DNA of 32,000 bases, taken from positions 1,170,001-1,202,000 of the forward strand of contig NC_008698.1 in assembly GCF_000015225.1 (NCBI RefSeq), in the 5' to 3' direction. The DNA is from Thermofilum pendens Hrk 5 (GTDB lineage: Archaea > Thermoproteota > Thermoprotei > Thermofilales > Thermofilaceae). Under the pieces are notes generated by a model, which worked only from the letters and a program-made list of their open reading frames with translations, searched no databases and was not told the DNA's origin. The translations under genes were made by a program, and so were the position numbers. Shown piece after piece: positions 16,233-20,164 of this stretch; the first letter of the stretch is position 1; each line of letters opens with the position of its first letter.

Positions 16233-18059
16233 ATGGACGTAGTTATTGTAGCGGCAGGCGAGGCTTCGAGGCTTAGGCCTTACTCCGAGGAAATGCCGAA
16301 AACACTCATGGAACTGAGGCCCGGCCTTCCTATAATCGACTTCATACTGAAAAGGGTTATGGCTCTCTCTCCTAGGAAGGTGGTGGTTGTTACGAGAAGG
16401 ACGTGGAAGGATATTCTCGCCTCGCATCTCGCCGGCTTAGCCGAAGTCGTTACAGTAGACCTCGAGGGCGGGTTTGGGAACCTCTACAGCGTGTACACGG
16501 CGCTCACAAGAGTCGGGGACGAGTTCCTGATATTGATGTCTGACCACATATTCGAGGAGGAAGTACTGATGAGGCTTGCAGAACACGCGAGCAAAGCGTC
16601 GTTTACCGTTTGTCTCGACAGGAATCCCTCCCGCTCCGAGGCTGTGGAAGGTTTGAAAGTTATAATCGAAGGAGGACTGGTTAGGGACGCTGGCAAAGAT
16701 GCGGCGCCCCGGTACGGGATCGATACAGGGGCGATAATGGCGCGCGGGAGAGCCAAAGAGTTTATCGAGGAAGTGATCAGACAGAAAGGTCCAGGGGCAT
16801 CTATTGCCGACGTGCTGAGATTCGCCGCCTCTAAGGGAGAGGAGGTCGACTACGTAGACGTTACGGGGCTTTTATGGAAAGATATCGACACCCCCGAGGA
16901 CCTCGTTAAGGCTAGGAAACTCGTCGAGAAGGTGGAGCTCAGGGAGCTAGCGAAGAGGACTGGGGATCCCCTCTCGCGAGCTCTTTTGAAACCCCTAACG
17001 ACGAGGCTTTCGATGCTCGCCTTAAAGAACTCTCTGCTGAAACCCGCCATGCTTACTAGCTGGGCTTCGGCGTTTTTAGCATCGTGGGCTCTGCTTCTCC
17101 CACAGGTGGAGAGCAACGCGCTTCTAATGTTTCCCCTATTAGCCGTGCACGTAGTAGCGAGCGAACTTCTACGCGAGCTAGCAGTGCTAGCATCGTGGGA
17201 CGTCACGGCGATATCGCAGGTAGATTTCCTCGCTACACTACCCTTAGCGGCTTTTGTCTCAAGGCTTGCCGATACATGGCCTTTGTCTGTGCTTGCGGGG
17301 GCTGGGATACTTTTCACTTCGCTTGCCGGGCTCCCCAGAATGGCAAGCGCGGAGGGTTACTCAGGGTTACTGGTCTCCAAGCTTCTCGCTACTATCGTGC
17401 TTTCGCTCTCTCTTTTCGTGGGTGGGGCGATCTACGGGGTAGCCTTTTGCGCACTAATGCCCTGGTTGCACATAGCTTTAAGGCTTAAGCCGCGTAGATC
17501 TGGGCTTGCCAGAGGGAAAGAGCCTTCCCATGTACCCATCCCCGCGGTTCGTGTTGACGAGATCGCCGAGAAAATCGAGTCCCTTGTAACGAATGTGGTG
17601 AAGCTAGCGGTGGTTCTAGCTGTGCTTACGATGCTCTCCCCCCTCTCATCGGACGTCCTCTTCCAAGTCGATGAATATTCGCTACGCGTGGGGACTCTTC
17701 TAACGGTCGCGCAGTTAACCGCCGTTGTGTACTATGGCTATAAGATCCTGGAACCTCTCTTTAGCCTGCTAGACGCCCTGGCGACAAGACTCGTCGAGAA
17801 ACTCGGGGTAACAAGGTACACTGCTAGGCGTATACTGGTAGAGTCCGTGTACTTGGTGCTAATAGTGCTTACATGGTTCCTCCTCCCCAGCCTCAAGAAC
17901 ATACCCGGTATTGGCGGTGTGCTCTACAGGGTTCTAACGATAGTTATCGTCGCGCTTTTTGCCCTTATCTCCTACGACTTGGTGAGGCTTCTCTTCAGGG
18001 TATTCGAGGACACGCTTAAGCGCATAGTACACGCTATAGCCCGTTTTGTCTCCGGGTGA
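16233..18059 (+). CDS. IPCT-like cytidylyltransferase fused to a DIPPS-like membrane domain lacking the CDP-alcohol transferase motif, plus an extra C-terminal membrane region
   Basis: The N-terminal domain reads VVIVAAGEASRLRP...PKTLMEL, SDHIF, GIDTGAIMA, LWKDIDTPEDLVKARKLV, collinear with the IPCT domain of archaeal IPCT/DIPPS as I recall it. It is followed by the connector GDPLSRALLKPLTTRLS and TM helices. The expected DGxxDGxxAR position reads HVVASELLRELAV. About 170 further aa contain additional TM helices. Confidence 0.8.
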   Translation: MDVVIVAAGEASRLRPYSEEMPKTLMELRPGLPIIDFILKRVMALSPRKVVVVTRRTWKDILASHLAGLAEVVTVDLEGGFGNLYSVYTALTRVGDEFLILMSDHIFEEEVLMRLAEHASKASFTVCLDRNPSRSEAVEGLKVIIEGGLVRDAGKDAAPRYGIDTGAIMARGRAKEFIEEVIRQKGPGASIADVLRFAASKGEEVDYVDVTGLLWKDIDTPEDLVKARKLVEKVELRELAKRTGDPLSRALLKPLTTRLSMLALKNSLLKPAMLTSWASAFLASWALLLPQVESNALLMFPLLAVHVVASELLRELAVLASWDVTAISQVDFLATLPLAAFVSRLADTWPLSVLAGAGILFTSLAGLPRMASAEGYSGLLVSKLLATIVLSLSLFVGGAIYGVAFCALMPWLHIALRLKPRRSGLARGKEPSHVPIPAVRVDEIAEKIESLVTNVVKLAVVLAVLTMLSPLSSDVLFQVDEYSLRVGTLLTVAQLTAVVYYGYKILEPLFSLLDALATRLVEKLGVTRYTARRILVESVYLVLIVLTWFLLPSLKNIPGIGGVLYRVLTIVIVALFALISYDLVRLLFRVFEDTLKRIVHAIARFVSG

Positions 18060-19300
18060 GCATGTCAATGAAGGGCGTTGTAATGTTCACGGAGGAGGAT
18101 CGTTGTTGCTATGAGCTAAAGCTGTGCGGCGTACCGGTCTACCTCCGCGTAATAGCTGCGCTCATCCAGGGGGGCGTAAGGGAGATAGTCTGCGTGAATG
18201 CCCCGAGCCGCGTAAAATCGGCGTTAGGCGACGGGAGAGAGCTGAACGCCAGGGTAACGTACTTGGATTCAGCGGCGCGGGTCGAGGGTTTGGGAGACGC
18301 TGTCCTGCTAGAGGCATCGACTATTATCGACGTAGCACTGGTGCGGGCGGCTAGTACGTTTAAAGAGGACACGGTGGTGCTCGACGAGAAGAGTGGAGGA
18401 AAGGTGTGGGTACTGCGGAAAGCCAGCGCGAGGCTAGAGGGTAAAAGTGCTGGTGAACTACCGGTAATACTAGGCGAGCTCGAGAAGTCTTCGCTCAAAC
18501 GGGTAAGCGTCCGAGAAATAGCCTTTATGGATCCTGAGCTCAAGCGTGAAGTGGAGCCTCTTTGCGTTAAGATCCGTGACCCCCTGGACGCACGCGAAGT
18601 AAAAAAGTTGCTGGTCAAAAGGGCTGGTAAAAGGTTGCACATAACCTCGCGGGTGAACACCGTAATTGAGGACAGGGTAGTCGAAATGCTATGCGAGCAC
18701 AGCTGGGTAACGCCTAACAGGGTTACACTCCTCGTAGACTTACTAGCGTTTATGGTAGCATTCTTTATACTGCAGGCGAGCTTGCCCCTGGCGCTCGTAG
18801 CGGCGTACCTCGTAGGAGTTCTGGACGGGGTAGACGGGAAGCTGGCAAGGGTCAGGTTTCCCTCAAAGGTGGGTAGCCTCGAGCACTCGTTCGACGCGCT
18901 ATACGAGCAGACCTGGTATGCTTTCCTCGCCTGGAGGTTGTTCGTAGACACGGGATCTCACCTACCCCTTATGCTCGGCTTTGCCTTTCTCGTCGTGGAC
19001 ACCTTCGTCCGGCACGTGTACATGCAGTTTAAAATGACGATGGGTATACCCCTTACGGCTTACTCCAGATTCGACAGGGCTTTTGCCGCCATCGACGGTA
19101 GGCGGAACGTTTATCTCATTTACTTCCTCGTCTCCTCGCTTCTCGGACAACCGCTCTGCGGTCTGCTAGCGGCGCTTGCACACGCGCTTATAACGGCTAC
19201 GTTCTACTCGCTGAGAGCGTTAAAACATGCAAGGAACGTCGACAAAGCGTCAGGCCTCTCGCGCCTCTTAGAACTGAGTAAAAGCACTAGGAAAGACTAA
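18056..19300 (+). CDS. CDP-alcohol phosphatidyltransferase (DIPPS-like) with a degenerate N-terminal nucleotidyltransferase-like domain
   Basis: LDGVDGKLARVRFPSKVGSLEHSFD (nt 18824-18895) fits D-G-x2-D-G-x2-A-R...G...D with one Asp-to-Glu change. It is preceded by TPNRVTLL and TM helices. The N-terminal ~190 aa align to the upstream gene's transferase domain (LCGVPVYLRVIAALIQGGVREIVCV ... KIRDPLDAREVKKLL), but the G-rich loop reads FTEEDRCCYEL. GTG 18056 overlaps the upstream stop; ATG 18062 is an alternative start. Confidence 0.8.
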   Translation: MSMSMKGVVMFTEEDRCCYELKLCGVPVYLRVIAALIQGGVREIVCVNAPSRVKSALGDGRELNARVTYLDSAARVEGLGDAVLLEASTIIDVALVRAASTFKEDTVVLDEKSGGKVWVLRKASARLEGKSAGELPVILGELEKSSLKRVSVREIAFMDPELKREVEPLCVKIRDPLDAREVKKLLVKRAGKRLHITSRVNTVIEDRVVEMLCEHSWVTPNRVTLLVDLLAFMVAFFILQASLPLALVAAYLVGVLDGVDGKLARVRFPSKVGSLEHSFDALYEQTWYAFLAWRLFVDTGSHLPLMLGFAFLVVDTFVRHVYMQFKMTMGIPLTAYSRFDRAFAAIDGRRNVYLIYFLVSSLLGQPLCGLLAALAHALITATFYSLRALKHARNVDKASGLSRLLELSKSTRKD

Positions 19301-19317
19301 GGTATCGACACAAGCAT

Positions 19318-19761
19318 CTAGCCGTCGTGGGAGGGCTTAGAGCCGGCCCTAGGTACTGTCATCCCCGTGAAGCGGGCAGCCTCTGCTACCAGCATCCTGA
19401 GGGCGTGGTAGAGCAACTGGTCCCTTACGAGTACTTTCTCCCCCCTCATGGCTCTCGCTAAGAGCCCTTCTCCCGCCACGTTGAGTACCACCACGTCGAA
19501 AGGTAGGCCGGTCTCCCTTTCGAGAACCCTGCCCAGGAGCTCAGAGTACTCGGCCGCCTCATATAGGTCCACGCTCCTAGCGAGGTAAACGGCGAGGTCT
19601 ACGTCCCTCGCGAACCCCCCTCTGACGAAGCTCCCGAATATCAGGGCCAGGGCTACCTCTTCTCTAGGTTCGAGGACCTTCCTCACTTTACCCTTCACGG
19701 CCTCCCTAAGCTCCTCCGTCACCCTGAAGGGTCTCCTACCCTTCAACAAACCTTCTGACAC
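19318..19761 (-). CDS. Minimal nucleotidyltransferase (MNT, pol-beta superfamily), partner of the HEPN protein
   Basis: ALIFGSFVRGGFARDVDLAVYL contains the GS-x(n)-D-x-D signature of NTP_transf_2. The tracked GTG 19761 overlaps the HEPN gene by 26 nt; GTG 19722 after the HEPN stop is an alternative start. Confidence 0.85.
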   Translation of the reverse strand: MSEGLLKGRRPFRVTEELREAVKGKVRKVLEPREEVALALIFGSFVRGGFARDVDLAVYLARSVDLYEAAEYSELLGRVLERETGLPFDVVVLNVAGEGLLARAMRGEKVLVRDQLLYHALRMLVAEAARFTGMTVPRAGSKPSHDG

Positions 19762-20164
19762 TTTTCACCGCCTCCTCCACAGTTTTCACACCGCTTTTAC
19801 GGGCCTCCTCTAAAATCTTCTCGTCGCTCACCTCCCAGTACCTATGAACCAAGAGGTTCCTGAGCCTAGCCAGCCTTACGAGCTCCTCGCCCACAGCCGG
19901 ATCTACGATCCCTGCTCTCGCTAGAAAGCTCATAGCCTCCACGTAGCCCTCTACGACTGTTCCGCGGAGCTCGGCCAGCCTTGACGCTATGACTGCCAGC
20001 CCCTCCACTACTTGTATCACCGCGTACCTGAGGGCGAAAGCGTCGGCTAGGTCCCGTACACCCCTCTCGGCGCACAGCCTTAGAACTCCCAACGCCTGCT
20101 CGACCTCGTAGAGAACCTTCCTCACCAGCGCCTTGTCCTCGGCGCTTAATTCGCCGCTCGACAC
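19736..20164 (-). CDS. HEPN-domain protein (DUF86/HepT-like)
   Basis: ARLRNLLVHRYWEVSD contains the R-x4-H HEPN catalytic motif in the usual DUF86 context. 142 aa. Confidence 0.85.
   Translation of the reverse strand: MSSGELSAEDKALVRKVLYEVEQALGVLRLCAERGVRDLADAFALRYAVIQVVEGLAVIASRLAELRGTVVEGYVEAMSFLARAGIVDPAVGEELVRLARLRNLLVHRYWEVSDEKILEEARKSGVKTVEEAVKSVRRFVEG

Follow-up and report, generated by a model that had tools for sequence, protein, structure and literature searches.

A probable, recurrent two-gene version of the IPCT/DIPPS system with reciprocal loss of catalytic motifs in Thermofilum pendens and other archaea

The closest described relative of the gene pair examined here is the IPCT/DIPPS of Archaeoglobus fulgidus (AF0263; structure 4mnd, with the IPCT part alone in 2xme/2xmh), in which a cytidylyltransferase, a juxtamembrane helix and a transferase with six transmembrane (TM) helices follow one another in one polypeptide that performs both steps. 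The pair lies in a 32,000-nucleotide stretch of the genome of Thermofilum pendens Hrk 5 (contig NC_008698.1, positions 1,170,001 to 1,202,000 of the forward strand), referred to below as the window. Gene 1 occupies 16233..18059 on the + strand and encodes 608 amino acids (aa); gene 2 occupies 18056..19300 on the same strand and encodes 414 aa when its open reading frame (ORF) is read from the GTG at 18056, or 412 aa from the ATG at 18062. Both proteins find their best match, in structure and in profile searches, in the A. fulgidus enzyme, and both repeat its order of domains. Unlike it, however, each of the two appears to have one live and one dead domain; in addition, gene 1 carries an extra membrane module of about 170 aa, and gene 2 reads G-x2-E-x3-D where the A. 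fulgidus enzyme has G-x3-D-x3-D.

Other known arrangements can be compared with the pair. Rodrigues et al. and Rodionov et al. (both 2007) are said to have found separate IPCT and DIPPS genes in Aeropyrum pernix, Hyperthermus butylicus and Thermotoga maritima, and the proteins are reportedly clean, single-domain ones. As in the window, two activities are then placed on two neighbouring genes, and the nucleotidyltransferase (NT) domain of gene 1 resembles the T. maritima IPCT (4jd0); the partners in the window, by contrast, each still contain the other's domain, full-length but inactivated, and purifying selection acts on it. The gene 2 homologues found include none from these three species. 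AF2299 of A. fulgidus (4o6m/4o6n/4q7c) has the layout and fold of gene 2, with a TM-score of about 0.8, but it retains the canonical motif, binds CDP-glycerol and matches the gene 2 family profile less well than DIPPS does. For AF2299, we know of no described partner whose transferase domain is reciprocally dead. The N-domain of AF2299 is described only as 'cytidylyltransferase-like', a contact or stabilising domain (PMC4634129). Finally, genes of about 620 aa in Bathyarchaeia and in deep-sea and hadal Nitrososphaerota (Thaumarchaeota) are annotated as 'ipct/dipps' for the synthesis of di-myo-inositol phosphate (DIP) (PMC8397731, PMC10773090). These are members of the gene 1 family and share 30-39 % identity with gene 1 along the whole protein, C-terminal module included, but their transferase motif is canonical and they are not accompanied by a partner, whereas gene 1 has lost the motif and is partnered.

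We consider it probable that the two genes constitute a split, mutually dependent IPCT/DIPPS pathway; what is new is a recurrent, reciprocally crippled two-gene version of the known system. In the proposed scheme, the cytosolic domain of gene 1 would combine CTP with a phospho-alcohol, most likely L-myo-inositol-1-phosphate, to give CDP-inositol, while its membrane transferase domain would be inert because the catalytic Asp residues are all gone. The membrane domain of gene 2 would pass the phospho-alcohol to an acceptor, most likely a second inositol-1-phosphate, yielding DIPP, the precursor of the thermoprotectant DIP, and the N-terminal cytidylyltransferase-like domain of gene 2 would be inactive. 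The division of labour, with gene 1 activating and gene 2 transferring, is well supported. The domain homologies, the states of the motifs, the correlation with adjacency and the mode of selection are shown directly; the substrate, the passage of CDP-alcohol between the two proteins, any contact between them and the product (DIPP and then DIP) are inferred. The ancestor of gene 1 would have been a bifunctional enzyme of about 620 aa, intact today in many Thermoproteota, in which the arrival of a gene-2-type neighbour led several times to decay of the transferase site. The dead domains may have been retained for structural reasons, serving as a membrane anchor, as a tether for the C-terminal module or, possibly, as a dimer partner. 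Comparative genomics supports the functional interdependence of the pair.

The cytidylyltransferase domain of gene 1 comprises residues 1-235 (16233..16937, +). The motifs AAGEASRL (residues 7-14), PKTLM, GNLYS, MSDHIF, GIDTG and WKDIDTPED are all present, and the signature residues G9, R13, K23, D104, D164, D217 and D219 are all retained and (nearly) invariant in the family alignment (A1). G9, R13 and K23, which belong to the G-rich loop and the catalytic Lys, are at least 90 % conserved there. Pfam reports NTP_transferase/NTP_transf_3 (PF00483/PF12804) at residues 3-232 and nothing else, with scores above the gathering thresholds (50.9 bits for a cut-off of 27 and 49.3 bits for a cut-off of 21.2). 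The best NCBIfam model is NF041135, the Thermococcales IPCT/DIPPS equivalog (E 1.9e-29, model positions 1-260); the score of 102.9 bits is far under the equivalog cut-off of 580, and the substrate is assigned via homology. The nearest solved relatives are 4mnd, 2xme and 4jd0, and the motifs common to gene 1 and the solved IPCTs are AAG..R, PK, GN-YS, M-DH, DTG and W-D-DT-ED. The match to 4mnd continues past the NT domain through the linker and juxtamembrane helix, up to residue 275. In the AlphaFold model (predicted local distance difference test, pLDDT, 83.5), the NT domain is followed by the juxtamembrane helix and six helices (residues 246-416), a low-confidence linker and a helical membrane module (residues 443-607); a Foldseek search with this model ranks 4mnd first, over 444 columns, and gives a TMt of 0.82 for 4jd0 and also for 2xme. 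A Shine-Dalgarno-like GAGGGG and an AT-rich stretch lie upstream of the gene.

Residues 236-417 of gene 1 (16938..17483, +) are the linker, the juxtamembrane helix and a six-helix pseudo-transferase, assigned by comparison with the DIPPS of 4mnd and by alignment with the gene 2 family. Where homologues have DGVDGELAR...G...D...D, this domain reads HVVASELLRELAV...D. In an alignment of 69 full-length homologues, 36 of them intact, HVVASELLRELAVLASWDVTAISQVD (residues 306-331; 17148..17225, +) falls column for column on DGVDGELARLFRRASGWGGFIDSILD and so replaces D-x2-D-G-x2-A-R-x8-G-x3-D-x3-D, with D1, D2, G, A-R and D3 all substituted; in CDP-alcohol phosphotransferases this motif is carried by TM2-TM3. 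No Pfam match to CDP-OH_P_transf (PF01066) is obtained in gene 1. An earlier sequence-only reading of the window had described near-canonical cytidylyltransferase motifs in gene 1, a missing transferase motif at about 17139-17267 and about 170 aa of additional membrane region; the motifs are all found and their residues conserved in the family, the aligned dead motif lies inside that interval, and the extra region is confirmed at residues ~430-608.

The family of gene 1 (about 620 aa) is found in Bathyarchaeia, Brockarchaeota, Thermofilum, Infirmifilum, Nitrososphaerota and Calditenuaceae. In 82 of 120 homologues the canonical motif of CDP-alcohol phosphotransferases is complete, near residue 309, and other members have ruined versions of their own, among them SEVGNELVNL, GDLADLAAVLAR, ADYCWVLNVLA, TDFIDVIVSF and VDAGEALHAL. 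Pairwise identity among intact members is 0.54 in the NT domain and 0.50 in the TM domain; among dead members the values are 0.60 and 0.29. The TM domain of gene 1 itself is only 16-18 % identical to that of any homologue, compared with about 50 % for its NT domain. These identities agree with function having been lost in the TM domain alone. Judged by its motifs, gene 1 is thus predicted to be an active IPCT-like cytidylyltransferase with a catalytically dead transferase domain.

The C-terminal membrane module of gene 1 extends over about residues 443-608 (17559..18056, +), as placed by the model, hydropathy and conservation. According to the model and hydropathy, its roughly 170 aa form about three TM helices, a hairpin and a long amphipathic helix. 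No Pfam family matches the module, which is conserved in intact and dead family members alike (conserved positions P437, Y500, G502, Y503, D537, Y540, G561 and Y581). It also exists as free-standing proteins of about 170-200 aa (P0208, P0210, P0218, P0219, P0221, P0222 and P0225), and it is an independent evolutionary unit. The genomic context of one stand-alone homologue, P0210, is unrelated.

Gene 2 residues are numbered here in the 414-aa version that starts at the GTG; numbers in the 412-aa model are 2 lower. The GTGA overlap with gene 1 that the sequence-only reading had pointed out holds only if translation begins at GTG 18056. The database model begins at ATG 18062, 2 nt past the TGA of gene 1, and with this start the overlap disappears; the genes abut either way. 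Residues 1-175 (18056..18580, +) form a putative pseudo-nucleotidyltransferase domain that can be aligned with the NT domains of the gene 1 family (family 1) and of those members of the gene 2 family (family 2) that still bear the G-loop. At the position where these loop-bearing members have AAGKGSRL...KPKPL, alignment with family 2 places FTEEDRCCYEL in gene 2 (18086-18118, +). Gene 2 and most archaeal members of family 2 are without the G, R, K and Mg-binding Asp of M-x-D-H, while the loop is still present as KALIIAAGKGSRL...KPKPL in P0168, P0175, P0176, P0187 and L031. Pfam gives no NT-domain match in gene 2, and NCBIfam gives a weak rmlA_long match (E 0.005, residues 22-92). The domain nevertheless matches RmlA-type nucleotidyltransferase folds at E ~1e-7 and the 2xme profile at 1e-8. 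Within family 2, P0168 has KALIIAAGKGSRL...KPKPL where its close relative P0170 has KALIIATDYSKSF...HPNPL, both in proteins of about 455 aa; in these two relatives the decay of the NT site is apparently recent, and the loss can be seen under way.

The transferase domain of gene 2 contains the motif LDGVDGKLAR-x7-G-SL-EH-SF-D-ALYEQ (18821..18910, +), with acidic residues at D257, D260, E276 and D280. Replacement of the G-loop and retention of LDGVDGKLAR had both been recognised from the sequence alone and hold up on alignment; the motif is not fully canonical, its second half being G-x2-E-x3-D rather than G-x3-D-x3-D throughout the family. The family 2 motif can be written DG[VL]DGKLAR-x8-G-x-[LI]-E-H-S-[FL]-D-x-L-[YF]-E-Q, with x7 in gene 2. 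Among 68 gene 2 homologues, D257, D260, G261, K262, L263, R265 and G273 are invariant, and E276, H277, D280 and E284 are at least 90 % conserved. In the alignment of the family 2 profile with 4mnd, Glu falls on D3 and Asp on D4, with a one-residue deletion. As the four acidic positions are kept in gene 2, the domain is probably active. A PF01066 match is recorded for nearly all gene 2 homologues, and in NCBIfam it is the DIPPS half of NF041135 that gene 2 matches (2.4e-12). A Foldseek search with its AlphaFold model (pLDDT 94.6) puts 4mnd at the top over the full length (441 columns); AF2299 and PIP synthases also align. Nearer the C terminus, the loop IDGRRNVY (19091..19114, +), whose R and N residues are invariant in the family alignment (A2), aligns with IPGKRDER of the A. 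fulgidus DIPPS and may bind a phosphorylated acceptor.

Inositol chemistry is favoured because gene 1 has IPCT-specific motifs, DIPPS is the best profile match, and the Arg-rich loop aligns with DIPPS. An alternative to which we give perhaps one chance in a handful is that the same division of labour serves other chemistry, with gene 1 making a CDP-alcohol (of inositol, glycerol or another alcohol) and gene 2 using an acceptor other than inositol-1-phosphate, such as glycerol phosphate (for a glycerophospho-inositol-type solute), a lipid or a glycan; the arrival of gene 2 would then have changed the product. Family 2 does have invariants missing from DIPPS and from family 1, namely the K after DGxDG, EH, YEQ and DGRRN. 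It also weakly matches choline/ethanolamine phosphotransferases, whose D-H pair is resembled by the E/D-H pair of family 2. CDP-glycerol is what AF2299 uses (PMC4634129), and no structural analogue with a dead N-domain is closer than AF2299. Profile comparison, however, favours the A. fulgidus DIPPS (4mnd), which the family 2 profile matches across both domains at E 1.4e-27, over AF2299 at 5.6e-18; lipid-processing enzymes do worse still, from 5e-11 for a PIP synthase fusion to 1e-5 for cholinephosphotransferase. Gene 2 has, moreover, just the six helices of the basic core and lacks the additional C-terminal helices that are said to make room for lipid acceptors (PMC4634129), and its Arg-rich loop, DGRRN, is suited to an acceptor that is soluble and phosphorylated.

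Neighbouring genes in other genomes bear on the same choice. An inositol-monophosphatase (IMPase)-family gene directly follows the dead family 1 gene in one locus with a partner (L082), which speaks against other chemistry, the inositol-monophosphatase family being one that dephosphorylates DIPP. On the side of other chemistry, a PIG-L (GlcNAc-PI de-N-acetylase-like) gene comes right after the pair and on the same strand in Infirmifilum lucidum (L016, 11056-11874), a neighbour that might point towards inositol-glycans or lipids. A further hint, like the PIG-L gene weaker than the IMPase gene, is a xylose-isomerase-like TIM-barrel (AP_endonuc_2) gene just upstream of family 1 genes in L004, L005, L007 and L021, in dead and intact loci, with matches below the Pfam threshold in L005 and L007; the xylose-isomerase-like superfamily includes inosose-handling enzymes. 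A search of the literature on DIP in Thermofilum or on dead cytidylyltransferase-like domains found nothing specific.

The split-pathway reading draws its comparative support from the relation between the state of the gene 1 motif and the presence of a neighbouring transferase. For this survey, fetched loci were scanned with hidden Markov models of both families, and the gene tables of further contigs were added; the metagenome contig matches listed are mostly distant stand-alone NT genes, with six loci that are true family members. A family-2-type transferase gene adjoins a dead family 1 gene in 12 of 13 loci (the window, L001-L007, L012, L016, L024 and L082 being those with a partner) and an intact or near-intact one in none of 8 (L017, L019-L022, L026, L028 and L083, seven of them fully intact and one with only D3 changed to E). 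Three arrangements occur: the partner is in tandem downstream in the window, L002-L007, L012, L016 and L024; it is convergent in L001; and in L082 (3282-6921) it lies upstream of the dead gene as a 224-aa protein without N-domain, with DGVDGKIAR...KLEHSFDMLYEQ...DGRR. On 100 of 100 bootstrap neighbour-joining trees, built from NT and C-module columns only, the dead or intact state changes 4-7 times, so the transferase motif of gene 1 appears to have been lost at least 4 times. Loss of the motif is lineage-specific and recurrent, and it is seen almost only beside a gene-2-type gene. The subclades of the family 2 partners mirror the lineages of the dead family 1 genes, and the pairs have therefore been passed on as units.

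Elsewhere, family 2 genes with a dead N-domain have stand-alone NT genes as neighbours; the contigs concerned are of Heimdallarchaeota-type and Hydrothermarchaeales. Because this combination is found in other phyla, loss of the N-domain is probably not tied to partnership with gene 1; family 2 generally depends on an external cytidylyltransferase. Another arrangement recurs in a set of metagenome contigs (L036, L038-L041, L044, L047, L050, L054, L057, L061, L062 and L071), where an IPCT-like NT gene of about 260 aa is followed by a gene for a protein of about 750-880 aa with a family-2-like region; a pattern search of these long proteins found neither the canonical nor the variant motif.

The selection acting on the dead domains can be estimated from unsaturated pairs of Brockarchaeota-type loci, relatives of the window genes. 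In family 1, the ratio of non-synonymous to synonymous substitution rates (dN/dS) is about 0.10 for the live NT domain, 0.23-0.30 for the dead TM domain and 0.05-0.12 for the C-terminal module; in family 2, it is 0.15-0.24 for the dead pseudo-NT domain and 0.10-0.14 for the live TM domain. Both dead domains are therefore kept by purifying selection, relaxed about 1.5- to 3-fold. They have the marks of pseudoenzymes: catalytic residues gone, a confidently predicted fold and dN/dS well below 1. A pseudogene or an assembly artefact is ruled out, since the ORFs are intact, there are full-length homologues, and dN/dS in the relatives is well below 1.

A more specific proposal, which we regard as tentative and, on balance, doubtful, is that the products of the two genes pair as an obligate, pseudo-symmetric heterodimer in which CDP-inositol is channelled from chain to chain, evolved independently at least 4 times from a self-sufficient bifunctional ancestor. 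The dead six-helix domain of gene 1 would here stand in for the other protomer of the homodimer that is usual among CDP-alcohol phosphotransferases, and the dead N-domain of gene 2 would pair with the live cytidylyltransferase of gene 1.

Several points weigh against a split, mutually dependent pathway. The association between adjacency and motif state (Fisher p = 4.4e-5) carries no phylogenetic correction, and L002-L007 together with L012 make up one clade; the trees are all neighbour-joining trees. In the genomes with an intact family 1 gene, the counts cover neighbouring genes only. L025 has a dead family 1 gene with no adjoining transferase. Per-helix conservation in the dead TM domain shows no helix that stands out as an interface, the relaxation being spread across all six. 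The Pfam score of gene 2 for CDP-OH_P_transf is sub-threshold (19.8 against 22 bits), and its motif is non-canonical, with Glu at D3 and a spacing one residue shorter. Lastly, no inositol-1-phosphate synthase (MIPS) or IMPase gene lies within the 32-kb window.

Some of these points would also suit functionally unrelated neighbours, gene 1 serving another pathway and gene 2 being fed its CDP-alcohol from elsewhere. The evidence for coupling of the two genes is indirect, the window contains no other inositol gene, and the dead gene of L025 is partnerless. We nevertheless think such independence improbable: the presence of a partner in 12 of 13 dead loci, which span several lineages and three different arrangements, and in 0 of 8 intact loci would have to be accidental, as would the mirrored lineages of the partners and the overlapping or abutting stop and start codons. 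Base composition argues the same way. The third-position GC of genes 1 and 2 is atypical, at 0.61 and 0.64, compared with 0.76-0.89 in surrounding genes and 0.69-0.73 in a nearby HEPN/MNT pair; the two genes may have arrived together by horizontal transfer, or they may differ in codon use.

How the two genes are related can be judged from profile comparison. In hhalign, family 1 and family 2 align with 99.8 % probability (E 1.4e-29) over 364 columns, from the first NT beta-strand to the last TM helix, at 15 % identity, and residues 236-408 of gene 1 are aligned to the TM domain of gene 2. Chance is excluded by these values, which extend over both domains; the models agree with the alignment in giving both proteins the juxtamembrane helix and six-TM fold, and the two genes are old paralogues, homologous along both domains. 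The sequence-only reading had proposed just this shared architecture, an IPCT-like domain followed by a CDP-alcohol-transferase-like one, with catalytic signatures lost reciprocally. The alignment, together with the Foldseek matches of both models to 4mnd over about 440 columns, bears out the first part, and the family alignments of each gene establish the second. Neither unrelated folds nor lost motifs reappearing at shifted positions, either of which would have undone that reading, were found. Its historical account fares differently, because each family still includes fully bifunctional members and family 1 sequences are a distant outgroup in the family 2 tree. Tandem duplication of one bifunctional gene with complementary domain loss (duplication-degeneration-complementation) would account for the common architecture, the side-by-side placement on one strand and the reciprocal motif loss, but it is very improbable given families only about 15 % identical, a C-terminal module in gene 1 and none in gene 2, a gene 2 motif variant common to relatives in Planctomycetota, Heimdallarchaeota and Hydrothermarchaeales, dead-N family 2 genes that occur without family 1 beside stand-alone NT genes, and that outgroup position of family 1.

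The motif states have practical consequences for annotation. Genes labelled 'NTP transferase' or 'IPCT/DIPPS' in a sizeable part of Thermoproteota would be unable to carry out the second step themselves; the lineages affected are Thermofilum, Infirmifilum, Brockarchaeota-type archaea and some Bathyarchaeia. An automatic prediction of DIP synthesis from one such gene would be wrong unless the motif state and the partner are checked. The families also amount to a replicated natural experiment, with intact ancestors, several apparently independent losses and cultured carriers, and suggest how a catalytic domain, made redundant by the activity of a neighbour, can turn into a pseudo-domain that is still conserved. 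The pair is a concrete case for asking whether dead domains persist for heterodimerisation; if the heterodimer proposal is true, it would be a natural, replicated case of irreversible gain of complexity by complementary degeneration.

Among the other genes of the window are ABC transporters, radical-SAM enzymes and FdhD. Gene 2 is followed immediately, on the opposite strand (19318-20164, -), by a toxin-antitoxin pair whose ORFs overlap and which consists of HEPN (HepT-like) and MNT (Polbeta nucleotidyltransferase). A promoter and terminator scan of this archaeal window, made with bacterial-type models, gave no more than chance, and a tandem-repeat scan found no CRISPR array in it. The segment 27915-30020 (+) contains genes for an AAA_14/DUF4143 ATPase and for a Cas_APE2256 (CRISPR-associated) protein. 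In a Hydrothermarchaeales contig (L079, 6547-7812, -), a stand-alone NT gene and a gene for a 176-aa protein consisting of the MscS beta-domain only are found near a dead-N family 2 gene. A link between the C-terminal module of gene 1 and this MscS-like fragment was considered and dropped, there being no similarity evidence; the neighbour is a curious one all the same, because DIP is an osmolyte.

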